Counted from the first letter of the stretch, positions 2,160 through 19,908 are shown. The stretch: DNA of 64,000 nucleotides from Candidatus Fimihabitans intestinipullorum (GCA_018714965.1 DVML01000007.1:5323-69322); one strand, 5' to 3'. Notes: generated from the letters alone by a model not told the origin. Program-made: numbers and translations.

Positions 2160-2181
2160 TATGTAAACTGCAGAAAAAGAA

Positions 2182-2210: not shown

Positions 2211-2256
2211 ATAAAAATAGAGGACGGTATGTCATATTTGAAAGGAGGGTGACAAA

Positions 2257-2382
2257 TTGTGGGATCGATGTGTATTTAAAAATACACCAGTAGGATTATT
2301 ACAGGGAACATTTGTGATAACACCGAATGATCTTGAGCAGATTTGTGACCTTGATGTTGATAATAAGGTGGTGAGAAAGTGA
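2257..2382 (+). CDS. 41-aa small ORF (MWDRCVFKNTPVGLLQGTFVITPNDLEQICDLDVDNKVVRK), TTG start
   Basis: Perfect SD AAGGAGGG with 7-nt spacer to TTG; stop TGA overlaps GTG start of next gene (GTGA coupling); below the 60-aa cutoff of the ORF track. Confidence 0.4.
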   Translation: MWDRCVFKNTPVGLLQGTFVITPNDLEQICDLDVDNKVVRK

Positions 2383-2780: not shown

Positions 2781-2795
2781 AATAGGAGAATAAAA

Positions 2796-3644: not shown

Positions 3645-3645
3645 T

Positions 3646-4935
3646 ATGTTTAATGATGCAATGTTTGCCCAGATTGACTTTGGACCACTAAAAGAATTAT
3701 TGGAAAATGATGATGTAACTGATATTTCTTATAGTAATGGAGGTCAATTATGGTTGAAGACACTATCGCGTGGTATTTTCCGCGTGGAAAACGATGTGGT
3801 CAATGATGCGTTTATGGAAAAACTAGCTTTCCAATGTTCCAACGTTATGGGTAAGACCTTTAACATGGCTCACCCTTTCTTGGATGCGGAGAGTGCAGAA
3901 TTGCGTTTGAATTTCGTACACGATTCTATCGCGAGAAACGGAATCGCCTGCGTAATGCGTAAAACACCAGCGAAAATTCGTTTGGAAAAAGAAAAAATAT
4001 TAGCAGAAAATTATATTACACTTGATGTTCATGACTTCTTAATGAAGGCAATTGAAGGACATTGCAACATAATTGTATGTGGAGAAACTGGTTCTGGTAA
4101 AACAGAGTTTGTCAAATATCTGGCTTCTCATATCAAAGAAAATGAGAAAGTTATTACAATTGAGGATACTTTGGAATTGCACTTGGATCGAATTTTTCCA
4201 CATCGGGATATCGTAGCAATGAAAACAAATAATATTGCTTCTTATTCAGATGTATTAGTAACTTGTATGAGACAGAATCCAAAGTGGATTTTGTTATCTG
4301 AGGTTCGTAGTGCGGAAGCAGTTATGGCTGTACGTAACTCGATTTCATCAGGTCACTATATTTTATCGACGATCCATGCGGATAAAGCAGAGTCTATTCC
4401 GAACCGTATGTACAGTTTGTTGGAAACAAATCAAGATATTGACCAGTTTTTGAAATCTATTTATCGTTATGTTCAATTAGGTGTTTATATTCGTGGATAT
4501 CAAGATAGAGTAACGAAGAGATTTCATCGTGAGATCGCTTCTGTTGTTGAATTTTACGTAACAGAGAATAACGAAGCAAAATATAATGTGATTTATAAAA
4601 AATTAAACGACGGTCATGTCGTAAGACAAAATCCTAGTAAATATTTACTTGAATATTTAGAGGGGCAAGGCGTAGAATTGCCAAAAGATATTATTCGAAC
4701 AGACTTAAATGAAAAAGAAGATAATACAGAGAAAGATGTGGAGAATACCACAACATCTACTGTAACTTCTACTCCGCAAGAACAAGCACAACAAGTATCT
4801 CAAGCAAGTCAATCTGCGGTGCAAAATCAAACGCCAGCTATGCCGGTAGGACAGACAGGTACTCAGCAGAATGCAAGTGCTACTTCTCAAGCGGGAGCAT
4901 TTAATCCGTTTGCAAATGTAAAACCAGTAGAATAA
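3646..4935 (+). CDS. TadA/CpaF-family secretion ATPase (VirB11/PilT superfamily)
   Basis: Walker A GETGSGKTE, Asp box ITIEDTLEL, His box LSTIHAD; start reassigned to ATG 3646 (RBS AGGTG, 7-nt spacer) directly after CpaB-like stop; Q/T/S-rich low-complexity C-terminal tail. Confidence 0.8.
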   Translation: MFNDAMFAQIDFGPLKELLENDDVTDISYSNGGQLWLKTLSRGIFRVENDVVNDAFMEKLAFQCSNVMGKTFNMAHPFLDAESAELRLNFVHDSIARNGIACVMRKTPAKIRLEKEKILAENYITLDVHDFLMKAIEGHCNIIVCGETGSGKTEFVKYLASHIKENEKVITIEDTLELHLDRIFPHRDIVAMKTNNIASYSDVLVTCMRQNPKWILLSEVRSAEAVMAVRNSISSGHYILSTIHADKAESIPNRMYSLLETNQDIDQFLKSIYRYVQLGVYIRGYQDRVTKRFHREIASVVEFYVTENNEAKYNVIYKKLNDGHVVRQNPSKYLLEYLEGQGVELPKDIIRTDLNEKEDNTEKDVENTTTSTVTSTPQEQAQQVSQASQSAVQNQTPAMPVGQTGTQQNASATSQAGAFNPFANVKPVE

Positions 4936-4948
4936 GGAGGGAATCATT

Positions 4949-5851
4949 ATGACGTTTATTATATTTGTAGTTGTTGCTGCAATCCTTATTTTCGTTTATT
5001 CATATCGAAAAAATTCTGGGCAGAACGTATATAAATATATTTCGAAACAAGCAGGTGTCATTTATGAAAAATACGCACCATACTCATTTCGGGAAGTACG
5101 ACAAAAAGTAAAAGATTTAGGACAAGAATATTCGACGAGACAATATGTCATTCAAATCGGTGTATTTGCTGCATCTGCAGCAGTTATTTCTTACCTATAT
5201 TTTTACAATCTGATTATTTCCATTATATATTCATGTTTGTCAGTCCTAGTGATTCCTTATCTGACTTATTTGAGATGTAAGAGATTGTATAGTGAGTTTG
5301 TCTTCGAGCAAATTCAAGTTTATACGACAAATACAATCATGGAATTTGCAACCACTCAATCGTTTGTTAAAGCGTTAGAGGGAGTGTATGAATCAGGAGT
5401 ATTAGAAGACCCTGTAAAGTCTGATGTAAAAATGATGATAGATATGGCTTACGAGAATGGTACAGTTGAACAGTCTATTGAATATATGAATTCTAGATAT
5501 GATTACTATATCGTAAAGAACATGCACCAACTATTCTTACAAATCACCAATGAAGGTGCGAAAGACTCTAGTGATGCACTAGAAAATATGTCTCTTGATA
5601 TCGATATGCTTGTTGAAAACGTATATAGCGATAGAATGGACCGTGCGCAGTTCCACAAAAAGTTTTTACAATTTGGAATTATTCTATATTTGATGGTTAT
5701 GTTAGTGCAGTTTTTGCTAGGAGTAGATACCTATATTCAAATGTTAGATAATATGTTAGTACAATTATTATTACATTTGATTATTATCGTCAATACAGCA
5801 TTCCTATTAAATGGTGAAAAATATTATAATGAGAATGTGGGGGCTGAGTAA
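4949..5851 (+). CDS. TadB-like polytopic membrane platform protein (T2SS-F-like)
   Basis: 300 aa, N- and C-terminal TM helices with cytoplasmic middle, position immediately after TadA-like ATPase; RBS AAGGAGGG. Confidence 0.45.
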   Translation: MTFIIFVVVAAILIFVYSYRKNSGQNVYKYISKQAGVIYEKYAPYSFREVRQKVKDLGQEYSTRQYVIQIGVFAASAAVISYLYFYNLIISIIYSCLSVLVIPYLTYLRCKRLYSEFVFEQIQVYTTNTIMEFATTQSFVKALEGVYESGVLEDPVKSDVKMMIDMAYENGTVEQSIEYMNSRYDYYIVKNMHQLFLQITNEGAKDSSDALENMSLDIDMLVENVYSDRMDRAQFHKKFLQFGIILYLMVMLVQFLLGVDTYIQMLDNMLVQLLLHLIIIVNTAFLLNGEKYYNENVGAE

Positions 5852-6633
5852 TGGAATTTATTTTAATCGCAGTAATTATTATATTTGTATTATCTTATAA
5901 CCATCATATTGACATGCATAAATTTATTGGAGATACGGAACCGTATTTTCGAATTTTAATGGAAGAAGACTATATATTTCTTCTAAGATTAAAGTATGGA
6001 GACAGTATCGATGTCGAAAAAATGTTTGGGATGCGCGTGCGCAATGGGCTCATCGCAACGGCAGCCATGCTTTTCATTTTGATGTCACAGGCAAATTTCT
6101 TAAATGTGTTATTTTCCGTTATCGTTGGATTTGTAGTATTTAAATTGCCTTATCAAAAATTAAAAGGGTATTATAAAGCTAATTTGCATAGAATTAACCA
6201 AATGTTACCATATTATTTGAAGAGTTTGGAGATCTTAGTTCAACACTATACAGTTCCAGTAGCGCTAAATCGTTCTGTTGAAACAGCGCCGGAAATTTTC
6301 CGATCTGGATTAAGAGAAATGATTGCTAAAATTGAAGCGGGAGATTCTAGTGTAGATCCATATATGGATTTCGCAAAAGAATATCCAGTACGTGATTCTA
6401 TGCGTATGATGCGTTTATTATATCGTTTAGGATTAGGATCACAGGAGAATAAGCAAGAGCAACTTATGATGTTTGCGAGAAGTGTATCACAACTTCAAAA
6501 CAAAGCACGTGAGCAAAAATATAAAGAACGTCTTGAGAAAATGGAAAATAAAACAATGATGATGTTGATGACAACAGGTGGAGGAATTTTATTACTCATG
6601 TTATTCTCAATGACAATGATGATGAATTTATAA
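5851..6633 (+). CDS. TadC-like polytopic membrane platform protein
   Basis: 260 aa, similar topology, TAATG stop/start overlap with preceding gene. Confidence 0.45.
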   Translation: MEFILIAVIIIFVLSYNHHIDMHKFIGDTEPYFRILMEEDYIFLLRLKYGDSIDVEKMFGMRVRNGLIATAAMLFILMSQANFLNVLFSVIVGFVVFKLPYQKLKGYYKANLHRINQMLPYYLKSLEILVQHYTVPVALNRSVETAPEIFRSGLREMIAKIEAGDSSVDPYMDFAKEYPVRDSMRMMRLLYRLGLGSQENKQEQLMMFARSVSQLQNKAREQKYKERLEKMENKTMMMLMTTGGGILLLMLFSMTMMMNL

Positions 6634-6704
6634 AATATAGTGTTTATAAAATAAAAAATATATGTTATACTAATAATGGTAGAGGTGTAAGGTGGTGAGA
6701 AAGA

Positions 6705-6881
6705 ATGAAAGAAGCAGCTGGAGAAGCAAACATGACAGTTATTACAATCATTTTGATTGGTATTATCGCAGCAATCGCTTACCCGATGATTAATAACTTA
6801 ATTACAAGTCAACAAGAAAAAGCTGAATGTCTTGATGCGGGTGGAACACCAGAAGAGTGTGGTGCGATCGCTAACCAATAG
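6705..6881 (+). CDS. 58-aa Flp-like prepilin candidate (MKEAAG/EANMTVITIILIGIIAAIAY...)
   Basis: Not in ORF track (<60 aa); RBS GGTGGTGAG; short charged leader ending in Gly followed by ~20 hydrophobic residues and a small Cys-containing tail, in the position of flp within a tad-like gene order. Confidence 0.4.
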   Translation: MKEAAGEANMTVITIILIGIIAAIAYPMINNLITSQQEKAECLDAGGTPEECGAIANQ

Positions 6882-6908
6882 TAAAAATAATAATGGAGGA
6901 ATAGAATT

Positions 6909-7331
6909 ATGAGAGAAGGTTTAGGAAATGTATTTATGTACAATATCATCATTCTTTTCCTCGTGTTAATGGTGGTATTTTTGGTTGGTACCATTAGTTA
7001 TAATAAGGCATTTAGAGTCAATAGTAGAATTATCAATGCGATCGAGAAATACGAAGGATACAATGGCCCTGCGTATGAAGAAATCGATCGCACTTTGGCT
7101 ATTATAGGATACCGCCGTGAGGGAGCTGTTGATTGCCCAACAAGAGACGGTGTTAGAGCCATGACGAATTTCACAGGTAAATATCAGTACTGTGTGTATG
7201 AATTTAAAATCAATGACAAATTTTACAATTACGGAGTTTTAACATATATTGATTTTGATTTGCCGGTTGCAGGAAAAGTAAAATTGCCGATTTATTCTAA
7301 AACCGATCAAATATATCAATTTCAAAGGTAA
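6909..7331 (+). CDS. TadE-like minor pilin/pseudopilin candidate, paralog A
   Basis: 140 aa; MREGLG/NVF... short leader then a single hydrophobic helix; shares GN...VG..SY.KA..V...IINAIE..EG...GYR...CP...YCV...YFD.P pattern with next gene. Confidence 0.4.
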   Translation: MREGLGNVFMYNIIILFLVLMVVFLVGTISYNKAFRVNSRIINAIEKYEGYNGPAYEEIDRTLAIIGYRREGAVDCPTRDGVRAMTNFTGKYQYCVYEFKINDKFYNYGVLTYIDFDLPVAGKVKLPIYSKTDQIYQFQR

Positions 7332-7346
7332 TAACGAGGTGATGAG

Positions 7347-7784
7347 ATGAATCAAGCGGTAGGTAATACGGCGATTGTCAATGTTGTTGTCGTATTTGTG
7401 ATTATCATTAGTGGGCTATTCGTCGGATCACTAAGCTATTCGAAAGCATATAAAGTAAAAAATATTATTATTAATGCAATAGAAGAACACGAGGGATTTG
7501 ATGAAGAAACAAAAGCTGAAATAGAAGAAACTTTGACTGAAATGGGATATCGTATTAATCGAAATGGTCAACAAAAATGTCCAAATCCAACAGTAGATGG
7601 TACGGTCGAAGCCTTAAATACAGCTAGTAATCATCATTATTGTGTTTGGAGAGTCAAAGAGACGAGGGGAACTTACTACATAGCAACAGCTTATATGTAT
7701 TTTGATATCCCACTTGTCGATGGATTTGAGGCACCTGTAACTGGTCATACCAAAACAATTTATAATGATGAAGCTCACGATTAA
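7347..7784 (+). CDS. TadE-like minor pilin/pseudopilin candidate, paralog B (tandem duplicate)
   Basis: 145 aa; MNQAVG/NTAIVN...; clear paralogy with 6909..7331. Confidence 0.4.
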   Translation: MNQAVGNTAIVNVVVVFVIIISGLFVGSLSYSKAYKVKNIIINAIEEHEGFDEETKAEIEETLTEMGYRINRNGQQKCPNPTVDGTVEALNTASNHHYCVWRVKETRGTYYIATAYMYFDIPLVDGFEAPVTGHTKTIYNDEAHD

Positions 7785-7804
7785 ATAGAGGAGATGGTGG
7801 ATCA

Positions 7805-8821
7805 ATGAATGTTATTGTAGCGAATCGATATCAATCATTACTACAAGGGCTTAATATTGATATCATTAAACAGATGGTTGGAGAGTTTGAAGTAGATGAT
7901 ATTATATCAACTTTTCAAAATTTCTTTTACCAAAGAATGATTTTAGATATTACAGCCATCAAAAACTATAAAGATGTTAAGACGTTACAAAAACTATCGA
8001 TATCTTTAGATATGGATAAAGTTATTTTGCTATTAGATGATTCACCGGAAAGTACATCACCGGATTATATCTCTAAACTGGTATCGATGGGAATTTATAA
8101 TTTTACAAAAAACGCAGAAGGTATAATGTATCTCTATAATAATCCAAATTCTTATCGAGATGTGGCACAATACCAGCAGTTGGATGTTGTAACTCCTATC
8201 GTTCAAGGGCAAGATGGAGCTTCAGTAAATCAAACAGGGTTGATGCAACCGGAACATGGGCGTATTATTGGCGTTAAAAACGTGACGGATGATTCTGGTG
8301 CGACAACTTTGATTTATATGATGAAAAAACAATTAGAAAAAAACTATTCTGTTGTTGCGATAGAAGTAGATAAGAGAGACTTTATGTTCTTTAGAGAAAA
8401 GGGATTGGTTAGTACGAATACTCAGGGAATAGGAAATGAAGTTTCAAAGTACAGTAATAAGGATGTCATATTGATTGATATTAATAGAAGTGCAAGTGCA
8501 GAAAGCCTTTGTACAGAAGTGTTTTACCTAATAGAGCCATCTATCATTAAATTGAATAAACTCATGATGACTGATGGAAAAGTATTGCAAAAATTAAAAG
8601 GGAAAAAAGTTATTTTAAATCAAAGTTTACTAAGTTCAAAAGATGTGTTAGATTTTGAGTATGAATCTAAAATTAAAATTTTTTATAACATGCCACCTTT
8701 AAACGAGAGAGAAGCAAATATTCAGGTTTTGAATTCTTTCTTAACGAAAGCGGGATTTACACGTCAAGCTGGAGGAGAACAAGAAAAAAAGAGTAAACTA
8801 CTAGGAATTTTTAATATATAA
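7805..8821 (+). CDS. hypothetical cytoplasmic protein; possibly a degenerate TadZ/CpaE-like assembly factor
   Basis: 338 aa soluble protein in tad-like block; no intact Walker A (only GVKNVTDDSGATTL); assignment by position only. Confidence 0.2.
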   Translation: MNVIVANRYQSLLQGLNIDIIKQMVGEFEVDDIISTFQNFFYQRMILDITAIKNYKDVKTLQKLSISLDMDKVILLLDDSPESTSPDYISKLVSMGIYNFTKNAEGIMYLYNNPNSYRDVAQYQQLDVVTPIVQGQDGASVNQTGLMQPEHGRIIGVKNVTDDSGATTLIYMMKKQLEKNYSVVAIEVDKRDFMFFREKGLVSTNTQGIGNEVSKYSNKDVILIDINRSASAESLCTEVFYLIEPSIIKLNKLMMTDGKVLQKLKGKKVILNQSLLSSKDVLDFEYESKIKIFYNMPPLNEREANIQVLNSFLTKAGFTRQAGGEQEKKSKLLGIFNI

Positions 8822-8823
8822 AA

Positions 8824-8852
8824 TTGACATTTCTATGAAATTCTTATATAAT
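8824..8852 (+). promoter_or_regulatory. consensus sigma-A promoter TTGACA-N17-TATAAT
   Basis: TTGACA at 8824-8829, TATAAT at 8847-8852, exactly 17-nt spacer; 23 nt upstream of RBS AAGGGAGG of the first VirB2-like gene. Confidence 0.7.
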
Positions 8853-8875
8853 TATTATAACAAGGGAGGTAACAT

Positions 8876-9202
8876 ATGTTTACATTAGTAAGTCCAGATG
8901 CAATTTGTGGAGGTATCACAATTCCAGGATCTATCGTAAGTATTATCAATATGGTAATCTTAGTTATTCAAATTGCAATTCCTATCATCTTAATCGTCAT
9001 GGGGATGTTAGATTTAGGAAAAGCTGTTATGGCTGGAAAAGAAGATGAAATTAAAAAGAACCAAACGTTATTCTTTAAACGTGTAATAGCAGCAGTTATG
9101 GTATTTTTAATTATTGCAGTTGTTAAATTAGTATTTGGAGTATTAGCAGATGCTAGTGGAGACAATACAGCAGTAGATTGTATCAGCAAAATTATTGGAT
9201 AA
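8876..9202 (+). CDS. VirB2/TrbC-like two-helix small membrane protein (T4SS pilin candidate), paralog 1
   Basis: 108 aa; helix1 (IPIILIVMGML) - charged loop (DLGKAVMAGKEDEIKKNQTLFFKR) - helix2 (VIAAVMVFLIIAVVKLV), C-terminal Cys; architecture of T4SS pilins. Confidence 0.4.
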   Translation: MFTLVSPDAICGGITIPGSIVSIINMVILVIQIAIPIILIVMGMLDLGKAVMAGKEDEIKKNQTLFFKRVIAAVMVFLIIAVVKLVFGVLADASGDNTAVDCISKIIG

Positions 9203-9225
9203 AACAAGAGTATTCTTGTTTTTTT
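9203..9225 (+). terminator. rho-independent terminator (probably attenuating)
   Basis: AACAAGA-gtat-TCTTGTT hairpin followed by TTTTTTT directly after paralog 1 stop. Confidence 0.6.
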
Positions 9226-9292
9226 GTGCCATAAAACTTGGAAAGGGGAAACGAATATGGTATACTTATATATGTAAAGATGGTGAAATAAT

Positions 9293-10063
9293 ATGAATTT
9301 AAAAAAATATATGAGAGATCTTATCGTACTAGCTTTTATATGCATGTGTATATCTCCTGTGAATGTACTCGCTGTTTGGGCAGGAGCACCACCGACTCCT
9401 ACAACTACGCCGACTCCTGGCACAAGTACGGAAAAGCAAGAGACATACGCAGAATGTCAACAAACACACCAGGGAAATTCTGGTTCTATGTGTCAAAAAG
9501 AAGCACAGGAAGCAGCGAAAGAAATAGAAAACAACAAAAAAATACAAGAAGGTAGTGGGTATGGAGAATGTAAAAAGGATTTGTCATATTTGCCAGAAAA
9601 TTCACAAGCTCTATATTGTGGAAAATATCAGAACACAACAGCTGAAGAATATGAAGAGATGACAGGAAAGAATGAAGCGAAAGCAGAAAATACATCAAAT
9701 AGCGGTCCGTCCTTAGAAGAAACATCATATAATATTCCATCTACGACTTGTGGTGGGTCTATTGAACTTCCTTTAGCACTTGCAACGATAACTTCAAATG
9801 CGGTTAATTTAGGAAAAATTGTTGTCCCAATTATTTTGATTATTATGGGGATGATTGACTTTTTTAAAGCAACAGCGGCAAGTGATGCAGATGCTACTTC
9901 TAAAGCCGGTAAAAAATTGACAAGACGTATTGTTGCGGCAATTGCAGCGATGTTGATCGTAACTTTGGTACAGTTTATCTTTAGTAATTTTGGAACAGCT
10001 ACAGGAAAGACGAGTGTAACGAGTTGTATAGATTGTTTTATTAATGGTAATTGTGGTGTATAA
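9293..10063 (+). CDS. secreted Cys-rich protein fused to a C-terminal VirB2-like two-helix module (paralog 2)
   Basis: Signal peptide (MNLKKYMRDLIVLAFICMCISPVNVLA), Thr/Pro linker, Cys-containing ~130-aa domain, then VPIILIIMGMIDFFKATAASDADATSKAGKKLTRRIVAAIAAMLIVTLV matching the paralog 1/3 motif. Confidence 0.4.
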   Translation: MNLKKYMRDLIVLAFICMCISPVNVLAVWAGAPPTPTTTPTPGTSTEKQETYAECQQTHQGNSGSMCQKEAQEAAKEIENNKKIQEGSGYGECKKDLSYLPENSQALYCGKYQNTTAEEYEEMTGKNEAKAENTSNSGPSLEETSYNIPSTTCGGSIELPLALATITSNAVNLGKIVVPIILIIMGMIDFFKATAASDADATSKAGKKLTRRIVAAIAAMLIVTLVQFIFSNFGTATGKTSVTSCIDCFINGNCGV

Positions 10064-10109
10064 ACTATGGAAAAGTGACAATAAACATATTTATTATTGT
10101 CCTTTTTTG

Positions 10110-10118
10110 TGTTATAAT
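10110..10118 (+). promoter_or_regulatory. possible extended -10 element (TGtTATAAT) upstream of paralog 3
   Basis: TGTTATAAT in intergenic region 10064-10149; no good -35. Confidence 0.3.
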
Positions 10119-10149
10119 GAAATTACTATTATGGGTAAGTGGGGATATT

Positions 10150-10521
10150 ATGAGAAAAAGCAACATTAAGAATAGAATATCAATGTCATTATTTACAGCA
10201 ATGATGTTTTTTGCTGGTAAGACGAACGTATTTGCAGTAGATAAAACATGTGAAGGAATTATGAGTCCTGAGGTGTTAACGTTAATCAAAGACATTTATA
10301 ATACTATTTCAGTTATGATGGTCGTGGCACTTGTCATATTTGGAATATTAGATTTTATTCAAGCAATAGCAGGAGACAAAGATGATGCGTTAAAAAAAGC
10401 TGCTGCCAAGTTTACAAAACGTGCAATTATTGTAATGGTGATAATTTTATTACCAGTGATTCTTGATATGTTGTTAGCTATTTTATGGCCGGATGTATCG
10501 TCATGTTTAGATGATATCTAA
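10150..10521 (+). CDS. VirB2/TrbC-like two-helix small membrane protein, paralog 3
   Basis: Start reassigned to ATG 10150 (RBS AAGTGGGGA, 6-nt spacer; ORF-track start 10051 overlaps previous gene); signal-like N-terminus, then VMMVVALVIFGILDFIQAIAGDKDDALKKAAAKFTKRAIIVMVIILLPVIL. Confidence 0.4.
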   Translation: MRKSNIKNRISMSLFTAMMFFAGKTNVFAVDKTCEGIMSPEVLTLIKDIYNTISVMMVVALVIFGILDFIQAIAGDKDDALKKAAAKFTKRAIIVMVIILLPVILDMLLAILWPDVSSCLDDI

Positions 10522-10538
10522 AAGAGGAGAGTGAAGAA

Positions 10539-12506
10539 ATGATTACATGGATAATTAATATTTTTCTTAGTTTCTTTTTCTTACTAGATCAAATTGTTTA
10601 TGGCTTAATCGAATGTTTGTATCAAATGATACTACAAATTGCTAACATATCTGTTATTAGCCAAGCATCTATGCAAGAATTTGCAAATAGAATTTATGTT
10701 CTAGTGGGAGTTGTAATGTTATTCAAAGTTGCCTTCTCTTTGATTCAATTATTTGCAAATCCTGATAAGATGAGTGATTCAACTATGGGAGCAGGATCGT
10801 TAGTAAAACGTATTATTATATCACTCGTTTTACTCGTTATGGCTCCAACGATATTTCAATTAGCATTCCGTATTCAAGGGACTATTTTGAATGCCGGAAT
10901 TCTAGAAAAAGTAATTTTAGATTCCGATGTTGCACCGGATGGACAAAATCCAATTGATGTAGATTGTTCTTTGGAAGAGAATCAAGCATATCGTGTCTGT
11001 GGTGGAACGACAATTGCGTTTGCTATCTTTAGAGGGTTTGTTACACCGAACGAAAACTTGTATGAAGAAAATGAAAACGGAGAACAAGTATTATCAAGTG
11101 ATTATGCGGATTATGAAGAAAATGTAGAACAATATAATGAAGCGGTAAAAGAGCAAAATATTGGAAAATTATTGGATCCGATTTTGGCTGGAGAATCTGG
11201 GGATCGTCCATTTAATTATAGTTTTTTAATTTCAACGATTGCCGGGGCATTTGCAGCATGGACTTTATTTATGTTCTGTTTTGATGTTGCGATTCGTGCA
11301 GTAAAACTTGCCTTCTTGCAATTACTAGCTCCTGTTCCTATTTTAGCTAGAGTAGAACCAAAAAGTGACAAAATATTTGATAATTGGCTGAAAGAATGTA
11401 TTTCTACTTATTTAGAAGTATTTGTTAGATTGATTGCGCTATATTTTGTCGTATTTATTATTCAAGAGATTAGCGCAAACGGATTATTTAGTTTCTATGA
11501 GTATACTGCCGAAGGAGCAACAAAGCAAGCAGAAGATGTAGGACTTTTAGCAACGGCATTTATCGTATTAGGTTTGTTAATGTTTGCTCAAAAAGCTCCA
11601 AAATTAATTTCTGATATCTTCGGAGTTAAATCTGGTGATTTCACTATGAATCCATTTAAAAAATCTCCAATGATCGGTGGAGCTGTTGGACTAGCTGCTG
11701 GTACTGCAATTGGTGGAATGGCAGCTGCTCAATCGGCCAAAGCAAATGGTAAAAATCCGATTGGTGCAGCGCTGAAAGGAGCTTTAACAGGCGGTGCTAG
11801 GGGTGCAAGCGCAGGATCACGTGAAAAAAGTTTTATGAAGACACTTGGTGCAGCCGGAGATGCTTCTACTAGGTATGCACGAAAGATACCGAATAACACA
11901 GAGAATTCAACGCCTGGAGGAAAAATGTTGGCGGTTGCCCAACGAATGGGATTTATGAAGACGGCTGGACAAAGAGATAAGGAAAAGGTTGATTCATACA
12001 ACCGATATAATAAATCGGCAAAAGCATTTAAGGATCGTGCAAAATCTCAAGCAATGAAGAAAAAGGATACAGAGGTAACAATTTCAAAAGGTGCTTTAGC
12101 CGGAACGAGTTGGACGAGGTATGGATTAGAGGCTGAGTTAGATCTTGCGAAGAAAACTGGAAATACAACCGATATTGAAGCGGTAAGTATGGCTCTTGAT
12201 GACTGGGACAAACAAAAAGCGGATGATATCGCAAAAGACTGGGAGCATCAATATAAAACTAATGGATTACAAGTGGATGATGCTGAAGCATTGCAATACT
12301 TAACAGAAATGACAAACGAAGTTAATGATAATCAATCTTATTATGATGGCATTTTTGATGCTAGTAAGAGTGTGGATGACAATTCTAAAGCAGTTGCTAA
12401 AGCTAATGCTGAATTTCAAGATTCTGAAGAATTTAAACGTAATCGAGATAATGATCAATATGCTGAGAGCGCTGTCGGACCTATGTTCCAGACAAAAGGA
12501 AAATAG
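10539..12506 (+). CDS. VirB6/TrbL/PrgH-like polytopic T4SS channel protein
   Basis: 655 aa with multiple TM helices, central extracytoplasmic loop, Gly/Ala/Lys-rich cytoplasmic C-terminal region; sits immediately before VirB3-like and VirB4-like genes as in prgH-prgI-prgJ. Confidence 0.45.
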   Translation: MITWIINIFLSFFFLLDQIVYGLIECLYQMILQIANISVISQASMQEFANRIYVLVGVVMLFKVAFSLIQLFANPDKMSDSTMGAGSLVKRIIISLVLLVMAPTIFQLAFRIQGTILNAGILEKVILDSDVAPDGQNPIDVDCSLEENQAYRVCGGTTIAFAIFRGFVTPNENLYEENENGEQVLSSDYADYEENVEQYNEAVKEQNIGKLLDPILAGESGDRPFNYSFLISTIAGAFAAWTLFMFCFDVAIRAVKLAFLQLLAPVPILARVEPKSDKIFDNWLKECISTYLEVFVRLIALYFVVFIIQEISANGLFSFYEYTAEGATKQAEDVGLLATAFIVLGLLMFAQKAPKLISDIFGVKSGDFTMNPFKKSPMIGGAVGLAAGTAIGGMAAAQSAKANGKNPIGAALKGALTGGARGASAGSREKSFMKTLGAAGDASTRYARKIPNNTENSTPGGKMLAVAQRMGFMKTAGQRDKEKVDSYNRYNKSAKAFKDRAKSQAMKKKDTEVTISKGALAGTSWTRYGLEAELDLAKKTGNTTDIEAVSMALDDWDKQKADDIAKDWEHQYKTNGLQVDDAEALQYLTEMTNEVNDNQSYYDGIFDASKSVDDNSKAVAKANAEFQDSEEFKRNRDNDQYAESAVGPMFQTKGK

Positions 12507-12526
12507 AAAAAGGGGGTTAAAAGGAT

Positions 12527-12841
12527 ATGAATGGATTTTTAATACCAGCAAACTCAAAGAAATCATTGTATATTTTTGGACTATTTACAACCAACGAGCT
12601 GATTATGTTTGCTGCTGGAGTGGGATTGACGTTGATTTTCTTAATTGCATTCCCGCTCAATAATATATGGTTCTCGATCTTGGCATTGATGCCAGGCTTA
12701 ATCACTGGTCTATTGGTACTTCCAGTACCTCATTATCACAATGTTATGACTTTTTTAAAGGAAATGTATTTATTTTATACAGAACGTCAAAAATTTGTTT
12801 GGAAAGGATGGTGTTTCTTAGATGGCAGCGACAAAGAGTAA
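12527..12841 (+). CDS. VirB3/PrgI/TcpE-like small two-TM protein
   Basis: 104 aa, two hydrophobic helices, directly upstream of the VirB4-like ATPase; RBS AAAGGGGG. Confidence 0.45.
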   Translation: MNGFLIPANSKKSLYIFGLFTTNELIMFAAGVGLTLIFLIAFPLNNIWFSILALMPGLITGLLVLPVPHYHNVMTFLKEMYLFYTERQKFVWKGWCFLDGSDKE

Positions 12842-13367
12842 ATATACAGAGGAAAGTTTTGTTCCTGTTAAAAATATTACAAATGGAATGATTATTCTAG
12901 ATAATAACGAAAAAGTAACAGGTGTTAAAATAATGCCTCGTAATATTTTTATTCTGGAGTATGATATGCAATCAGCAATTATCAATAATCTAAAGAACGT
13001 TTATAATATGATCGATTATGAATTTTGGATCATTGCAGCAGACCGTCCGGTCGATATCAATGTATATTTATCACAATTACAACTTTTATATAATTCCATT
13101 CAAAGTCCAATCAAAAGAAAGTTGATTATCGAGGATATTAATAAAGCAAATAGTTTCATGAACAATAACATTGTAGATACAGAGTATTTCTTATTGTTTA
13201 GAGAACGTGATGATGATAAAATTCAAAAGAGAATTCGTACTTTGATTACACAGTTTGGAAATGCAGGATTATCTTCACATCAAACGACAAATGAGGATTT
13301 GAGAATTATTTTGGATAACTTCTTAAATGGTGGAGTTACAACGACGTTTGGGACGGTGATGTCATAA
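12822..13367 (+). CDS. 181-aa soluble protein translationally coupled to VirB4-like ATPase; either the separately encoded VirB4 N-terminal part or an accessory transfer protein
   Basis: Stop TAA overlaps downstream ATG (TAATG); combined length 181+594=775 aa matches a full-size VirB4. Confidence 0.4.
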   Translation: MAATKSKYTEESFVPVKNITNGMIILDNNEKVTGVKIMPRNIFILEYDMQSAIINNLKNVYNMIDYEFWIIAADRPVDINVYLSQLQLLYNSIQSPIKRKLIIEDINKANSFMNNNIVDTEYFLLFRERDDDKIQKRIRTLITQFGNAGLSSHQTTNEDLRIILDNFLNGGVTTTFGTVMS

Positions 13368-15151
13368 TGAATATTAAGAGTCAATTAGCGCCAAAAGGAT
13401 TAGAATTTAAACCAAGTGAATTTATCATCAGTGATAAGTATGCTACGATTATGACCGTGATTTCTTATCCGAAATTTATTAACCCGGGATTTTTAGCAAA
13501 CTTAACAAGTTTATCCGGAATTAAGGTAGTTATTAAACATATTCCTATGCCATTTAGTGTCATTAGTAAGATGCTAAATAAAGAGATTGCTGATTTGAAA
13601 CAGCGATATCAAGAGGAAAATGATAAGACGATTCAGGAGAGAATTCGTCAGGATTATGAATCATTAGAAGTTTTTATTCAGATGCTTGCATCAAGTCAGT
13701 CCAAGATTTATGACTTTCAATTACACATTATGATAACTGCCAATTCTGAAGAAGAGTTGATTGCGAAAAAGTTACAAGTTAGAAGTTATTTGGAAGCGAT
13801 GGAGTTACGTGCAGTACCACTTCGATTTGAACAAGAAAAAGTATTAAAATCTATTTTACCTATTTATCCAAAACAAGATATAGAAGATCGAATTGGGACT
13901 CCGATTCCATCTCCAACGATTGCTGCGATGTACCCATTTATTTTTGATAGTATTAAAGACCCAGGATTGTCAACATTACTTGGAGTTGATTTCTCAGGTG
14001 GAGTTATTCTGTTTAATCAGTTTTTATATCAAATCAAAAAAGAACATAATCGTAATAATGCAAATATGATTATTTTAGGTACTTCTGGTAGTGGTAAATC
14101 AACAGCAGCTAAAGTAATGTTACGTAGTCACTTTAGAAATAATAGTCAAGTCATTATGATAGACCCTGAAGGCGAATTAGAGGAAATGGCAAGATTATAT
14201 GGTGGAGATTTCATCGACCTTGGAAAAGGTGGAGAATATGGAATGATCAATCCACTAGAAATTGTTATGGATGCGGATGAAGATGAGATTAAACAGGGAT
14301 TGGGATATACTGTATTAACAAGAACACTCCAAACTTTAAAGGCATTCATTAAATATTACGATCCAAGTATTACAGAGGACGTTATTACTTTATTTAGTGA
14401 GGTTGTACAAGAAACATATAAGCGATTTGGAATTGATTTCAATACAGATTTTTCTAGATATACATCAAAAGATTATCCTATCTTTAAAGATGTATATGCC
14501 ACGATTTATGGAAAATTGAAGTCAATGCCTGAAAAAACACATGAACGTGACATTCTTGAACAATTGGAATTAAAGATTAGACCAATCGTTAAGGAATTAC
14601 GTTATTATTTCGATGGGCATACGACAATTAAGCCAAAGAGTGAGTTTATCGTATTTAATATTAAGGAATTGATGAATGCGGATGTGAATATTCGTAATGC
14701 GTTATTCTTTAATATCTTGAAATACGCATGGGGAATGACGTTAAATAAAAGCGTTAATACGATATTATCCGTGGATGAGGCTCATGTATTGTTAAGCGGA
14801 AATAATACATTAGGTGCTGATTTCTTGGCGCAAATTCAAAGACGTGCGCGTAAGTATAACACGGGAACAATTATTATTACACAACAACCGAGTGATTTTA
14901 GTGATAATGCAGTTATCACGCAGGGAAAAGCGATTTTTGATAACGCTTCTTACTACTTAGTTATGGGACTAAAAAAACAAGCAGTAGAAGATTTGGCTCG
15001 TTTAATCGATTTGAACGACAACGAGAAAGAGAGTATTAAAGGTTATAATCAGGGAGAAGCATTATTTGTATGTGGTAGTCGTCGTATGCAAATCAATGTT
15101 ATCGTATCAGAACAAGAATTAGATTCATTTGGTTCAGGAGGAGGATTATAA
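13367..15151 (+). CDS. VirB4/PrgJ/TcpF-family conjugative ATPase
   Basis: Walker A GTSGSGKST, downstream VDEAH Walker B-like motif, N-terminal motif resembling the N-terminal signature of Gram-positive VirB4 homologs; 594 aa. Confidence 0.8.
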   Translation: MNIKSQLAPKGLEFKPSEFIISDKYATIMTVISYPKFINPGFLANLTSLSGIKVVIKHIPMPFSVISKMLNKEIADLKQRYQEENDKTIQERIRQDYESLEVFIQMLASSQSKIYDFQLHIMITANSEEELIAKKLQVRSYLEAMELRAVPLRFEQEKVLKSILPIYPKQDIEDRIGTPIPSPTIAAMYPFIFDSIKDPGLSTLLGVDFSGGVILFNQFLYQIKKEHNRNNANMIILGTSGSGKSTAAKVMLRSHFRNNSQVIMIDPEGELEEMARLYGGDFIDLGKGGEYGMINPLEIVMDADEDEIKQGLGYTVLTRTLQTLKAFIKYYDPSITEDVITLFSEVVQETYKRFGIDFNTDFSRYTSKDYPIFKDVYATIYGKLKSMPEKTHERDILEQLELKIRPIVKELRYYFDGHTTIKPKSEFIVFNIKELMNADVNIRNALFFNILKYAWGMTLNKSVNTILSVDEAHVLLSGNNTLGADFLAQIQRRARKYNTGTIIITQQPSDFSDNAVITQGKAIFDNASYYLVMGLKKQAVEDLARLIDLNDNEKESIKGYNQGEALFVCGSRRMQINVIVSEQELDSFGSGGGL

Positions 15152-15177
15152 TCACACATTAGTATGGTGGTGATGAC

Positions 15178-17004
15178 ATGCATTTTTTAGCCGGATTGGG
15201 AAAGAAATTATTAGTTGACAAGGCAAAAAAGAAAATTGCTGGTAAAGCGAGAGGCGATTTGCCAACACTTAAGGCCCCTTTACTTATGATTGGTGGATTA
15301 CTTGCAGGATTAGGATTGTTTCCAATAATCCTAATCCTTTTAATGGTGGCTGTGGTATGTTATGTCATATTTGCCCCAATTGAAGGTGCTGTCAATTTCG
15401 TAAAAGGAATAGCAAATGCAGTTGGAGATTTTTTCCAAAGCGTTGGGAACTTCTTTGTTTATGGAAGTTTTGCTAATGACAAGACAACTTACTATAATGA
15501 ATTAAAGAAACATTATGATCATTGGAAAGGCGAGGGAGTTATCTTAGATGTAGCATGGATTGCTTCGGCTACTAATTATGCTAGATTAGCGGATTTAAAT
15601 GACAGTGGTGAATGTACGCCTGAAGTTGATGCTGATGGAAATGTAACTCAATGTGGAGAAGAAACAGACTATGGACAGATGACTGGAGAAGTCAAAGAAT
15701 TAGTCGAAGGAATGGTAACTTCTGCTGATGGCAGGTCGCTTCGAAAATCCGATGATGAATATAAGGCTTGGATGTTAGATGAAAATTCTGGAAAATCATG
15801 GATCGAAAGGCATATGGAACAAGTAGATGCAGATATTCCATCAAATCCAGAGAAGAAAAAAGATTTCTTAGAAGATGCTGTAGAGCAAATTTTTCAGATG
15901 AAAGAAGCTTATAATGAAATTGCTCAAATGATGAAAACATCATCAACATGTGGAAGTTACGAGGAAATAAAATTATGTGATACGAAAAGCCGTGGGTTTA
16001 CTGGAGGTTATGCAAATCAACCTTGGGTAAGTGGAAGTTATCAACATACTTTTTGGAACTGTGATAAAGGAACATGTTCTGCAAATACGACACTTCCATT
16101 AGGAAAAAACGAATATGGAACACTAGAAGTTGATGAGCTTGGTTTTACATATATGGAAATAGGTGGAACTAAGTTCTATACGGCTGCAGTTGGATCTTAT
16201 TATTTCGATGATCCATCTGAAGCGATAGGTACGAGATATCGTATTACGACAGATGCTGGAAATGTATATCATATTATTTTAGCCGATGTTCTTGCGGATC
16301 AAGATGCCAAAAAGGGAAATAATGATTCTAGTCCATATTGTTTAACGCAAGCGAATACATTTGGTGATATGTATTTTGATCGTGTATATATGCAAACGCA
16401 TAGTCCTGAAACTTATAATTTATTTATGAGTGATGGAACGAACAATCATGACTTCGATGAAAATCATAAATTTAGTGGTACAATTGTTAAAATTGAGAGA
16501 ATGACAGGTTCTTCAGATTGTACAGGAGACTTTGGATTTACTGGTGAAGTAGATGATCCAATTATTGAGGATTCTGCAGTTTCCAAAGATTATTCTTTAT
16601 TTAGTGGAAATGGAAATCCATTTGAAGTACCTCAGTGTACATGGTTTGCGTGGGCAAGATTTTATCAAGTCTATGGATATGACAGTGGTGCACGTGGTAA
16701 TGGTGAAGCAAATGCGAGAGAGATTGTAGCAGCAAATCCTGGCAAATTCCAAATGAGTGATACTCCGGCTCCAGGAGCAGTGTTTAGTATTCCACCATAT
16801 GGAGGATCAGGAATCACAGAATATGGACACGTAGGATTTATAGAAGCATTTGATGGAGAAAGTATCTGGATTTCAGAGGGTAATGTTAAATTATCTGGAT
16901 ATGGTTCTGGAAATATGTGGTTTCATAAAGAAAATTGGGCGTCTTATAAAGCTCGTTATCCGGGTATTGAGTTTGCGGTTCCAGTAAATGCAAAGAAAAA
17001 ATAG
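15178..17004 (+). CDS. membrane-anchored cell-wall hydrolase with C-terminal CHAP domain (PrgK/VirB1-like role)
   Basis: N-terminal TM; C-terminal CTWFAW...GHVGFIE Cys/His arrangement typical of CHAP amidase/peptidase domains; ~300-aa central Cys-containing domain of unknown type. Confidence 0.65.
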   Translation: MHFLAGLGKKLLVDKAKKKIAGKARGDLPTLKAPLLMIGGLLAGLGLFPIILILLMVAVVCYVIFAPIEGAVNFVKGIANAVGDFFQSVGNFFVYGSFANDKTTYYNELKKHYDHWKGEGVILDVAWIASATNYARLADLNDSGECTPEVDADGNVTQCGEETDYGQMTGEVKELVEGMVTSADGRSLRKSDDEYKAWMLDENSGKSWIERHMEQVDADIPSNPEKKKDFLEDAVEQIFQMKEAYNEIAQMMKTSSTCGSYEEIKLCDTKSRGFTGGYANQPWVSGSYQHTFWNCDKGTCSANTTLPLGKNEYGTLEVDELGFTYMEIGGTKFYTAAVGSYYFDDPSEAIGTRYRITTDAGNVYHIILADVLADQDAKKGNNDSSPYCLTQANTFGDMYFDRVYMQTHSPETYNLFMSDGTNNHDFDENHKFSGTIVKIERMTGSSDCTGDFGFTGEVDDPIIEDSAVSKDYSLFSGNGNPFEVPQCTWFAWARFYQVYGYDSGARGNGEANAREIVAANPGKFQMSDTPAPGAVFSIPPYGGSGITEYGHVGFIEAFDGESIWISEGNVKLSGYGSGNMWFHKENWASYKARYPGIEFAVPVNAKKK

Positions 17005-17016
17005 AGGAGGTTTAGC

Positions 17017-17454: not shown

Positions 17455-17456
17455 AT

Positions 17457-19880
17457 ATGAAATTGAAATTTAGAGCAGATTCAAAAGATATTACGATATT
17501 TTGTATTTTCTGTGTAGCACTTTTATATTTTGTTGCGATTGCAATATTAAATGTTGTAGAGTTTATCGAGTCATCAACGTTGTGGGGATTTAACCCGATC
17601 CCTGCGTTTACGGAATATTTTTTTCCAACGATGGTTTTATATTTAATATGTTTGATATTGATTATTGCAAGTGTTTCTTCTTATTTCTTTGATAGAGAAA
17701 AAGGAATCGGAGTACAGGCTGGGAAAAAAGATAAAGGCGGATATTCTAGATGGGCAAAAGAAAAGGAATTACAAGCTCAAAAGGAAATTAAAAAAGTAAA
17801 CCCTGCCGACGATGAGATTCCATATGCCGGAGTTCCTCTGATTAATAAAGGAAAAGAAATATGGGTGGATGATGGGGAATATCATAACTTAATTATCGGA
17901 GCAACCGGAAGTGGTAAAACTCAGATCATGGTTAACCCATTAGTAAAATTACTTGCAAAACATGGTGAATCTATGATTGTAACCGACCCTAAAGGAGAAA
18001 TTTACGAGGAAAATGCTAATTTATTACGTGAAAAAGGTTATAACATTGTCGTTTTAAACTTCCGTGATCCGTTGAAAGGAAATTCATGGAACCCAATGAC
18101 GTTGCCTTATAATCTATATAAAAGCGGAAATCAAGATAAGGCAATCGAGTTAATCGATGACTTGGCAGCTAACATACTATATGATGATAATTCTAAAAAT
18201 CAGGATCCTTTCTGGGAAAAGACATCAGCTGACTACTTTGCTGGATTATCTTTAGCTTTGTTTGAAGATGCAAAAGAAGAAGAGATCAATTTGAATAGTA
18301 TCAGTTTGATGGTCAATATTGGAGAGGAGAAGTTAGCTGGCTCTACTTATATCAAGGAATATTTTAGCGATAAAGATCCAAGTGGAGCAGCTTATACGAA
18401 TGCCTCAGGAACATTAATTGCACCGAGTGAAACAAAGGGGAGTATCTTATCTGTATTTAAGCAAAAGATAAAATTGTTTGCATCTCGTGAAAATTTATCT
18501 GAGATGTTAAGCCATAGTGATTTTGATATTAAAGATATCGGTCGTCAAAAGACAGCTGTTTTTATCATTGTACAAGATGAGAAGACGACATATCACTCAC
18601 TCGTAACGATCTTCTTGAAACAAACGTATGAAACATTAATCGATGTAGCACAAGAAAATGGTGGGAAACTACAATATCGTACAAATTTCATTTTGGACGA
18701 GTTTGCCAACATGCCACCATTAAAAGATGTCACGACGATGATTACTGCATCCCGTTCTAGAAGAATGCGCTTTAACTTTATCATTCAGAACTTTGCTCAA
18801 TTGTATCAAGTATATGGAAAAGAAAACGGTGAGACGATCAAGGGTAACTGTGGTAACATTATTTATCTTATCAGTAGTGAGTTGGCAGCGTTGGAAGAAA
18901 TCAGCAAAATGTGTGGTGAAGTAAAATCTAAAGAAAAGGATAAAACAGCGAGCACCCCACTTGTTACAGTCAGTGACTTGCAACGTTTACAGCAGTTTGA
19001 AACAATTATTTTACGTTTACGTACAATGCCATTTAAGACAAAATTAACACCCAATTTTAAGATGATTCAAAATGGATTCTGGGGAAAGGAATATCCAAAA
19101 GCAGATTATCCTATTAGAGAACGTAAAAAAGTTCAAGTGTTCGATATTAAAAAATTTGTGGATGAAAAGCGTAAGAAAAAGATGGAAGAAATGTTTGGAC
19201 CTTCTGCAGGTAAAGGCCCAATGCCATCTCGTCCAATGACTTCACGCCCAATGCCAGGTGGAATGCCATCTCGTCCAATGACACCACCAATGGGACCTAC
19301 ACCACCGACAGGTGATTTTAACGTCGATGAGATCGTAAAGAGAATTGATGCGAAGATTGCGGAATTGGAAGAGGAAGAACGTAAAGAAAAAGAAGAAATG
19401 GAGAAAAAGAGAAAGCAGGAAGAAGAGAGACGGATTAGAGAGGCAATGGAGGCCAAAAGAAAAGAAAAGCAAGAACAGCAGAGAGCAGAAACGCAACAAA
19501 TACGACCGAAGCCTCCGGTTCCAGAAACTCCAATTCCGAAGGTACCACCACGCCCAATTGTAGAGGAGAAGAAAACTGCTCAAACGGTAGTACCAACGCC
19601 ATCTAAAGTAGCACCATCACCAGTTCCACCACGTCCAGAGGTGAAACATGATGTGAAACCACAACCAAACATAGTACCTCCAAAAGGAAAGGAAGAAGCA
19701 GTATTCTCTGCTCCTATCTATGGAGATACAGATTTTCCAAAACCATCGGTTCCTACCCCTGAGAGAAAGGGTATAACAGAACTACCGCAGAAGCCACAAA
19801 TGGAACCAAGAGTGATCACACCTGCAGTAACGGATGATCAGTTCTTTGATGACTTCTTCAGTGACGATGACGATGAGTAA
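17457..19880 (+). CDS. VirD4/TraG/PcfC-family type IV coupling protein with long disordered C-terminal extension
   Basis: Two N-terminal TM helices; Walker A GATGSGKTQ; TraG-like core to ~residue 570; C-terminus has PSRPM repeats, EK-rich stretch, Pro-rich stretch and acidic tail DDQFFDDFFSDDDDE. Confidence 0.8.
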   Translation: MKLKFRADSKDITIFCIFCVALLYFVAIAILNVVEFIESSTLWGFNPIPAFTEYFFPTMVLYLICLILIIASVSSYFFDREKGIGVQAGKKDKGGYSRWAKEKELQAQKEIKKVNPADDEIPYAGVPLINKGKEIWVDDGEYHNLIIGATGSGKTQIMVNPLVKLLAKHGESMIVTDPKGEIYEENANLLREKGYNIVVLNFRDPLKGNSWNPMTLPYNLYKSGNQDKAIELIDDLAANILYDDNSKNQDPFWEKTSADYFAGLSLALFEDAKEEEINLNSISLMVNIGEEKLAGSTYIKEYFSDKDPSGAAYTNASGTLIAPSETKGSILSVFKQKIKLFASRENLSEMLSHSDFDIKDIGRQKTAVFIIVQDEKTTYHSLVTIFLKQTYETLIDVAQENGGKLQYRTNFILDEFANMPPLKDVTTMITASRSRRMRFNFIIQNFAQLYQVYGKENGETIKGNCGNIIYLISSELAALEEISKMCGEVKSKEKDKTASTPLVTVSDLQRLQQFETIILRLRTMPFKTKLTPNFKMIQNGFWGKEYPKADYPIRERKKVQVFDIKKFVDEKRKKKMEEMFGPSAGKGPMPSRPMTSRPMPGGMPSRPMTPPMGPTPPTGDFNVDEIVKRIDAKIAELEEEERKEKEEMEKKRKQEEERRIREAMEAKRKEKQEQQRAETQQIRPKPPVPETPIPKVPPRPIVEEKKTAQTVVPTPSKVAPSPVPPRPEVKHDVKPQPNIVPPKGKEEAVFSAPIYGDTDFPKPSVPTPERKGITELPQKPQMEPRVITPAVTDDQFFDDFFSDDDDE

Positions 19881-19908
19881 ATCTAGAAAAAATCTAGATT
19901 TTCTTTTT
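19880..19908 (+). terminator. rho-independent terminator closing the transfer/pilus block
   Basis: AATCTAGA-aaaaa-TCTAGATT hairpin followed by TTCTTTTT. Confidence 0.65.

Follow-up and report, generated by a model that had tools for sequence, protein, structure and literature searches.

Why is a gene for a protein of only 108 amino acids, placed between a block of type-IV-filament-like genes and the genes of a type IV secretion system (T4SS), preceded by a promoter of perfect consensus and followed at once by a hairpin with a run of seven T? The question is raised by a stretch of 64,000 nucleotides from the chromosome of Candidatus Fimihabitans intestinipullorum (GCA_018714965.1 DVML01000007.1:5323-69322), called the window in the following, in which this gene, designated P1, opens an uninterrupted row of three paralogs (P1, P2 and P3). 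A first-pass annotation had taken the two signals for a strong internal promoter and a partial terminator inside an operon, which serve to over-produce a pilin-like subunit. From the evidence presented below we consider it probable that P1 forms a self-contained and very highly expressed transcription unit between the two gene blocks.

Promoter and ribosome binding site of P1

The promoter is located on the coding strand, within the 54-nt non-coding gap between the stop codon of the upstream gene g338, which encodes 338 amino acids, and the ATG of P1. Its -35 hexamer begins 2 nt past this stop codon and its -10 hexamer ends 23 nt before the ATG. All elements listed by the first-pass annotation, namely TTGACA and TATAAT with the spacer of 17 nt, the ribosome binding site and the 108-amino-acid gene, are present (Table 1). 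In a promoter scan of the first 20 kb the site ranked first with 12/12 matches among 104 promoter-like sites. Shuffled sequences contained 94 such sites, i.e., weak sites are not enriched. Perfect TTGACA-17-TATAAT sites were found twice in the 64-kb window versus 0.07 expected from 100 dinucleotide-preserving shuffles, none of which reached two.

The second perfect promoter (36597-36625) drives a lone tRNA gene (36661-36734), which places the P1 promoter in the strongest class of this genome; its class is that of the stable-RNA genes. The layout around the tRNA gene is identical to that around P1: promoter and product are followed by a hairpin (36748-36768) and then by an extended -10 element TGTGCTATAAT (~36832) for the gene at 36864. 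As the product is a tRNA, this unit has no Shine-Dalgarno sequence. Sites with one mismatch precede a tRNA cluster, the T-box leader and one protein gene of the window.

The Shine-Dalgarno sequence of P1, AAGGGAGG, has a duplex energy of -12.8 kcal/mol and is the strongest of the cluster. The spacer of the promoter contains an inverted repeat of 5 bp (ATTTC-TAT-GAAAT). A function of this repeat as operator was rejected, since a C-to-T change weakens the repeat in the nearest public sequence (L001, a contig of a metagenome-assembled genome (MAG) labelled 'uncultured Tenericutes', 99% identity) and the spacer is poorly conserved. A search of Rfam with the flanks of P1 gave no known RNA family.

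Conservation of the signals in related genomes

The database contained 685 relatives of P1, and 398 were detected in a scan of one genome per species. Eighty loci with 38-59% protein identity to P1 were fetched, nearly all of them from MAGs of uncultured gut Bacilli, 'Tenericutes' or Mycoplasmatota. Genes of the pilin-module family were located therein by a hidden Markov model (HMM), which yielded 213 genes with one to eight per locus, and the same scoring of promoter, Shine-Dalgarno sequence and hairpin was applied to the family genes and to 415 other genes of those loci. The window and L001 were left out of the counts, leaving 79 species-level genomes.

A promoter score of at least 11.5, which demanded a -35 match and undervalues extended -10 promoters, was obtained for 53 of 82 P1-type genes and for 8 of 393 controls (p = 2.5e-40). 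Hairpins followed by a T-tract, with -5 kcal/mol or less and loops of up to 8 nt, were found near the stop codon of 57/79 P1-type genes and 33/400 controls (p = 3e-32). Both signals together occurred at 43 of the 78 P1-type genes but only at one of 385 controls, and the median Shine-Dalgarno duplex energy amounted to -10.8 kcal/mol versus -7.7 kcal/mol (p = 7e-18). Within the 584 kb of the loci 28 perfect 12/12 sites were counted, 19 of which lie exactly at a P1 ortholog; the promoter scanner independently finds the sites in L061 and L028.

The pattern of conservation follows the hexamers, which are 85-94% identical between the loci compared to 48% for the spacer and 37-40% for the flanks. Conserved as well, though not selected on, are an A before the -35 element, a G before the -10 element and the dinucleotide 'TA' 6-7 nt past the latter. 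This 'TA' is present in 79-81% of 58 aligned ortholog promoters and is equivalent to A8859 of the window, the predicted transcription start. The distance between the end of the -10 element and the ATG is 23-26 nt in most P1 orthologs. The ortholog hairpins belong to many unrelated sequence types with strong folds (z -4.5 to -7.7); thus, conservation concerns the structure and not the sequence. A T-tract is kept directly 3' of the stem, and the distance from the stop codon to the hairpin varies from -9 to +30 nt.

The promoter accompanies the P1-type gene regardless of whether g338, a paralog or an unrelated insert of ~1.1 kb lies upstream, and the hairpin trails it whether a P2-type long gene or TrbL comes next. 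Where P1 is duplicated in tandem (L013, L020 and L054), the promoter stands before the first copy and the hairpin after the second. Other paralogs mostly lack both signals (promoter score of at least 11.5 in 3-9%, hairpin in 10-16%). Judging from these sequence comparisons, promoter and terminator are under selection, and it is almost certain that they function and belong to P1 in particular. The over-production of a subunit, which the first-pass annotation had read from the arrangement, gains in weight as the signals are kept with the P1-type gene in dozens of genomes and are accompanied by the outstanding Shine-Dalgarno sequence.

The assumption that the signals are chance matches in AT-rich intergenic DNA and have no function can be regarded as effectively refuted. 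AT-rich DNA yields many TATAAT-like strings, and the weak promoter-like sites of the window are about as numerous as in shuffled sequence. However, both perfect sites stand at functional positions, and p values of 1e-32 to 1e-40 were obtained for the conservation across species.

The hairpin behind P1 and the putative restart of transcription

The hairpin with its T7 run, already noticed in the first-pass annotation (9203-9225), does follow directly after the gene, although it is weak. Its core is composed of AACAAGA (9203-9209), the loop GTAT and TCTTGTT (9214-9220) and can be extended to a stem of 9 bp (9201-9222), which starts inside the stop codon of P1. The fold has -7.3 kcal/mol (z = -3.1) in a context of 31 nt and -9.0 kcal/mol (z = -2.3) in one of 41 nt, and the sequence is identical in L001. 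Its AAA-stem-TTT form is that of the other gene-end hairpins in the window, and AT-rich stems are the norm among the gene-end hairpins of this genome. Altogether, 32 hairpin-plus-T sites were found at gene ends of the window versus 7.1 in shuffles, corresponding to a ~4.5-fold enrichment.

Rather than terminating transcription, the hairpin might mainly be a 3' stabiliser or processing boundary that keeps exonucleases off the P1 mRNA, a role proposed for papA. The weak and AT-rich stem fits this idea, and differential mRNA stability is a known route to an excess of pilin, as in the pap system. We nevertheless regard such a role as improbable: the T-tract is conserved right after the stem in orthologs, the same form recurs at the many gene ends counted above, and a promoter follows directly after the hairpin, as is typical of the boundary between two transcription units.

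In the orthologs the T-tract of the P1 terminator usually runs into an extended -10 element, e.g., TTTTTTTATGGTATAAT, which is mostly positioned 1-8 nt beyond the P1 stem. Exact TGnTATAAT was detected in 38 of 48 regions between P1 and the next gene (79%) versus 26% of other plus-strand intergenic regions (p = 4e-11). With one mismatch the numbers are 44 of 48 (92%) and 34% (p = 2e-13). The corresponding putative restart promoter of the window retains both hexamers and the TG in L001, with five changed spacer bases. As a promoter follows the terminator, the downstream genes need not depend on read-through. Extended -10 elements are evidently the standard promoters of these organisms, against which the full -35/-10 consensus of P1 stands out. 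A small open reading frame (ORF) for MVYLYM (9257-9277) behind GGAAAGGGG was considered as a leader peptide and rejected; its frame is not kept in L001 and it overlaps the restart promoter.

A second junction of this kind is found after P2. The hairpin GACAATAA...TTATTGTC has -13.3 kcal/mol (z = -4.1, 0/200 shuffles as good); with its loop of 9 nt it was missed by the hairpin scan and verified by folding. The perfect extended -10 element TGTTATAAT next to it probably drives P3 and the genes for TrbL, VirB3, VirB4, CHAP and VirD4. The same succession of T-tract and TGnTATAAT recurs in ortholog loci. As far as can be read from its signals, the locus is a chain of three units, each with its own promoter and terminator, which comprise P1, P2 and P3 to VirD4, and not one operon with an internal booster. 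The earlier placement of the elements 'inside the operon' holds insofar as promoter and hairpin are situated within the cluster, but the cluster itself appears to be split into several transcription units.

Several observations weigh against P1 as a separate unit. Only two of the 9 bp in the window hairpin are G-C pairs, so that it does not form a stable G+C-rich stem and was not called by the terminator scan, which requires three. By the strict measure it has -5.9 kcal/mol and ranks among the weakest ~6% of the P1 orthologs (median -8.6), hence termination is possibly inefficient in this genome. The restart site of the window matches the consensus in 4/6 (-35) and 5/6 (-10) positions, and since extended -10 elements are common in AT-rich genomes, as the 26% of other intergenic regions illustrate, such a 5/6 site is less certain when taken alone. 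No terminator was found between g338 and the P1 promoter, so that P1 is probably transcribed from upstream too. Finally, the loci compared are phylogenetically related and their counts are therefore not fully independent.

Part of these observations would also fit a single operon, boosted from an internal promoter and attenuated by a partial terminator, in which P2 to VirD4 depend on read-through of the hairpin at 9201-9225. The weak hairpin, the lack of a terminator before the promoter and the imperfect restart site speak for such an operon, and the much stronger terminator after P2 makes a read-through transcript of P1 and P2 plausible. We consider dependence on read-through unlikely, as TGnTATAAT follows the terminator in most ortholog loci, the ortholog hairpins are strong, and the restart hexamers are kept in L001 while the spacer varies; read-through is not required. 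The partial terminator and the regulation within an operon could thus not be upheld in the form given by the first-pass annotation. What can be retained from it is leakiness in this particular genome: partial read-through into P2, which would stop at the strong terminator behind P2, is plausible, and both models are compatible and can coexist.

For P1 as a separate unit we propose the following course of events. The consensus hexamers would recruit the housekeeping sigma factor with no activator needed, and transcription would begin near A8859 with a leader of ~17 nt that bears a near-perfect Shine-Dalgarno sequence. The intrinsic terminator just beyond the stop codon would end the P1 mRNA after ~365 nt. 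From the extended -10 promoter, transcription of the following genes would then restart at a lower level, and in this genome a second terminator-plus-promoter module would do the same after P2. As an outcome, P1 would be present in large molar excess over the machinery proteins, which corresponds to the need of a polymerising or stoichiometrically dominant subunit, e.g., a VirB2-type pilin-like protein.

The P1 protein and its paralogs

P1 is a small protein with two hydrophobic helices and a short charged loop. Within the family alignment the loop KAVMAGKEDEIKK is nearly invariant, and Cys11 and Cys102 are invariant. The AlphaFold2 (AF2) model contains helices at residues 18-53 and 56-93 with a mean predicted local distance difference test (pLDDT) score of 77.8, and both termini are predicted on the same side of the membrane. 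The most consistent Pfam match was PF18895 (T4SS_pilin), which was obtained for 22 of 30 family members, always below threshold (best E 1.6e-4). CagC (PF16943) matched three of the 30 members with E values of at least 0.04, and PF04956 (TrbC/VirB2) matched none of them. Genes for TrbL-like, PrgI-like and VirB4 proteins are located within 4 kb after P1 in the window and likewise in nearly all loci.

Other findings count against a pilin. For P1 itself there was no Pfam or NCBIfam match above threshold and no PF18895 match at E <= 1. The family profile matched no sequence of the PDB, and Foldseek against PDB and a viral library returned only non-significant generic helical hairpins and no solved pilin. 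P1 has no signal peptide, with ~10 residues before the invariant Cys, and thereby differs from VirB2/TrbC propilins. Neither P1 nor P2 matched any NCBIfam family; the 'Mbov_0395 pilin-like' family, which might have been expected, did not appear.

It is conceivable, though on balance doubtful, that the signals are real and P1 is another abundant small membrane protein, e.g., a T4SS component that forms a non-polymerising channel or interacts with lipids, or a protein of the exclusion or immunity type. The lack of family and structure matches and of a signal peptide points in this direction, as does the view in the literature that T4SS of monoderm bacteria lack VirB2 pilins (PMC4027160, PMC12102498). 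The recurring PF18895 and CagC matches, the two transmembrane helices around a charged loop with both ends on one side, and the VirB6-like, VirB3-like and VirB4 genes adjoining P1 argue against it; moreover, variable paralogs stand in tandem arrays here, much as VirB2 genes do in Patescibacteria, Bartonella and Anaplasma. Membership of P1 in a T4SS pilin family is not established, and sub-threshold matches, gene context and topology speak weakly for it. That P1 works as a pilin-type subunit can reasonably be inferred from its expression architecture and its status as the conserved paralog. The pilin-like role named by the first-pass annotation is therefore consistent with the evidence, with Pfam matches below threshold and no structural match to solved pilins.

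The three paralogs share a C-terminal module composed of Cys, transmembrane helix, charged loop, transmembrane helix and Cys. P2 matched PF18895 with E = 0.003 and 18.1 bits, below the cutoff of 26.6, and the A1 HMM with E = 2e-23. P1 represents the conserved short paralog with its 685 homologs, versus only four database relatives of the fast-evolving P3. Up to eight pilin-module paralogs are encoded per locus (L051 2660-8220; L014, L021, L046, L056 and L058). Many of these array paralogs are long (250-590 amino acids) and consist of a signal peptide, a variable N-terminal domain and the C-terminal module; they could be minor or tip subunits or adhesins. Among up to eight paralogs, evolution has consistently reserved the highest expression for the short and conserved P1 type, which is the best available argument at the sequence level for P1 as the bulk structural subunit. 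This argument is relevant because VirB2 homologs are stated to be absent from monoderm T4SS (PMC4027160; PMC12102498).

As a tentative extension, which we regard as possible and not as probable, P1 might be the main subunit of a filament or channel of the VirB2 type. The T4SS that builds it would be chromosomal, apparently without a relaxase, and permanently linked to the type-IV-filament-like block; it would belong to a Gram-positive lineage with cell wall and spores and be conserved in hundreds of species of uncultured gut Bacilli, with the long paralogs as interchangeable minor or tip subunits. If true, this would run against the prevailing opinion that VirB2 pilins are absent from monoderm T4SS and would indicate a non-conjugative function, e.g., cell-cell contact or exchange of DNA or protein, in parallel to the system of Patescibacteria.

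The surrounding gene cluster

All features discussed are compiled in Table 1. The gene order of the cluster is conserved and comprises the ATPase, membrane proteins, a small Flp-like gene, two TadE-like genes, g338, (paralogs), P1, (P2-type), TrbL, PrgI, VirB4N and VirB4C. In the upstream block only the T2SSE-family ATPase (94.8 bits) exceeds the Pfam threshold. An RcpC/CpaB-like protein remains below it, and several small membrane proteins resemble the Flp/TadE type by form only; the labels 'TadB/TadC/TadE/flp' are positional guesses. Downstream of P3 follow genes encoding a TrbL/VirB6-like protein, a PrgI/VirB3-like protein, a VirB4 ATPase of two ORFs, a CHAP hydrolase and a VirD4 of the CD1115 type, the latter above the curated cutoff. 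All 80 loci share with the window (546-19880) the junction, in conserved gene order, of the type-IV-filament-like block with an MPF_FATA-like T4SS. The window proteins tested included no relaxase, and a megablast of 7800-15200 against plasmids gave no match.

Table 1. Position of P1, its paralogs and the associated signals within the window.
Feature	Position	Strand	Remarks
Sigma-A type promoter of P1	8824..8852	+	-35 TTGACA 8824-8829, 17-nt spacer 8830-8846, -10 TATAAT 8847-8852; direct reading
Predicted transcription start A8859	8858..8859	+	leader ~17 nt; from conserved 'TA' in ortholog promoters
Shine-Dalgarno sequence AAGGGAGG	8862..8869	+	6 nt before ATG of P1
P1	8876..9202	+	108 amino acids, ATG 8876, stop TAA 9200-9202; two transmembrane helices, charged loop, Cys11, Cys102
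Intrinsic-terminator-like hairpin after P1	9201..9225	+	stem AAAACAAGA / GUAU / UCUUGUUUU; T7 run 9219-9225
Putative restart promoter for P2	9238..9266	+	TTGGAA 9238-9243, 17-nt spacer, extended -10 TGgTATACT 9258-9266; 26 nt before ATG of P2
P2	9293..10063	+	256 amino acids; signal peptide, Pro/Thr-rich Cys-containing N-terminal region, C-terminal pilin-like module
Strong hairpin GACAATAA...TTATTGTC plus T6 after P2	10077..10108	+	stem-loop 10077-10101; canonical terminator form of the lineage
Perfect extended -10 TGTTATAAT	10110..10118	+	directly past the T-tract behind P2
P3	10150..10521	+	signal peptide and module; start ambiguous (10051, 10117 or 10150)
CHAP hydrolase gene	15178..17004		
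Hairpin plus T-tract right after VirD4 stop	19879..19908	+	-9.6 kcal/mol, z = -3.5; marks the end of the T4SS unit

Some further observations were made within the cluster. The g338 gene (7805-8821, 338 amino acids) has no Pfam or NCBIfam match, yet it is kept at its position in nearly all loci. VirB4 is encoded by two ORFs in different frames (12822-13367, N-terminal part; 13367-15151, C-terminal part) with an ATGA overlap. As the split recurs in many related genomes (L009, L010, L013, L020, L026, L027, L030, L041 and others), it probably reflects a VirB4 that is conserved in two parts rather than a pseudogene or an error in sequencing. An extended -10 element TGTTATACT (6663-6671) and a strong Shine-Dalgarno sequence AAGGTGGTGA precede the small Flp-like gene (6705-6881, MKEAAGEAN...), and the pair of TGnTATAAT and AAGGTGGTGA recurs at its orthologs. 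A promoter-like site with 11/12 matches, TAGACA-17-TATAAT (17258-17286), is located inside an immunoglobulin-like gene (17017-17454), ~170 nt before the start of VirD4, and could be an internal VirD4 promoter. The 5' part of the CHAP gene contains a very stable perfect hairpin GGATTAGGATTG...CAATAATCCTAATCC with -16.2 kcal/mol, followed by TTTT (15307-15337).

The rest of the window is ordinary chromosome. A T-box precedes the gene of a class II aminoacyl-tRNA synthetase, and further genes encode ClpC, a PBP5-type carboxypeptidase, GerA and a YutH-like spore protein, in addition to clusters of tRNA genes. The host is apparently a walled, spore-forming member of the Bacillota, as GerA, YutH and PBP5 suggest. 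Fourteen tRNAs are spread across the window, with two clusters within 28462-31197, and the T-box leader upstream of the synthetase gene extends from 39686 to 39890; near-consensus promoters precede the tRNA clusters and the T-box (28412, 39654). The records of nine cluster-bearing contigs (L008, L010, L016, L022, L026, L040, L055, L062 and L067) say 'uncultured Muribaculaceae', 'Bacteroidaceae', 'Ignavibacteriales' or 'Actinomycetes', which probably reflects mis-binning or mis-labelling and not a real occurrence in these groups.

Comparison with known systems

The regulatory logic proposed for P1, an own strong promoter and an immediate end of the transcript for a bulk subunit, is already known from cagC, flp-1 and papA. 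In the pap and fim systems of Escherichia coli, which encode chaperone-usher pili, the mRNA of the major subunit (papA, fimA) extends to a stem-loop behind the gene and builds up to a surplus, whereby endonucleolytic processing and differential stability contribute in pap. We know of no restart promoter described for pap or fim. For the tad genes of Aggregatibacter actinomycetemcomitans, Kram et al. are said to have reported a 'termination cascade' in 2008, with flp-1 beside the promoter, terminators after it and far more pilin transcript than machinery transcripts. The downstream genes reportedly rely on read-through there, whereas at P1 a putative restart promoter follows the terminator. Filament family and organism of the tad system also differ from those of P1.

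The closest T4SS precedent is cag25 (cagC) of Helicobacter pylori, a VirB2 ortholog with a separate promoter, whose transcript is one of the two most plentiful from the cag island (PMC3417554). Its abundance was attributed by the authors to the role of a multimerising pilin-like subunit (PMC3417554). Like P1, cag25 is a VirB2-type gene in a T4SS locus with an own promoter and a very short transcription unit. Unlike P1, it derives from a diderm proteobacterium and is co-transcribed with cag24, and neither a consensus -35/-10 promoter nor a junction of terminator and restart promoter is described for it in that study (PMC3417554). The sequence similarity between the two is marginal, with the three of 30 family members that touch PF16943.

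With regard to the paralog arrays, the chromosomal MPF_FATA-related T4SS of Patescibacteria are comparable, which have no relaxase nearby and carry 2-11 divergent VirB2-like genes in tandem, as detected with PF18895 and PF04956; VirB2 arrays are reported from Patescibacteria, Bartonella and Anaplasma (PMC12102498). The window shares with them the array, with three paralogs here and up to eight in related loci, the chromosomal location and the lack of a relaxase among the proteins tested. It differs in its host, which is a walled and apparently spore-forming member of the Bacillota and not an epibiotic member of the candidate phyla radiation (CPR), and in the fusion of the cluster to a type-IV-filament-like block. 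Promoters were not analysed in the Patescibacteria study (PMC12102498).

The tight junction of terminator and restart promoter and the monoderm Bacillota host distinguish P1 from the known cases, to which it adds a well-supported example with natural strong promoter, Shine-Dalgarno and terminator parts for AT-rich uncultured Bacilli. The map of transcription units, P1, P2 and P3 to VirD4, eases checks in metatranscriptomes and heterologous expression. More unusual than the regulation is the chromosomal T4SS with VirB2-like arrays in a Gram-positive lineage.

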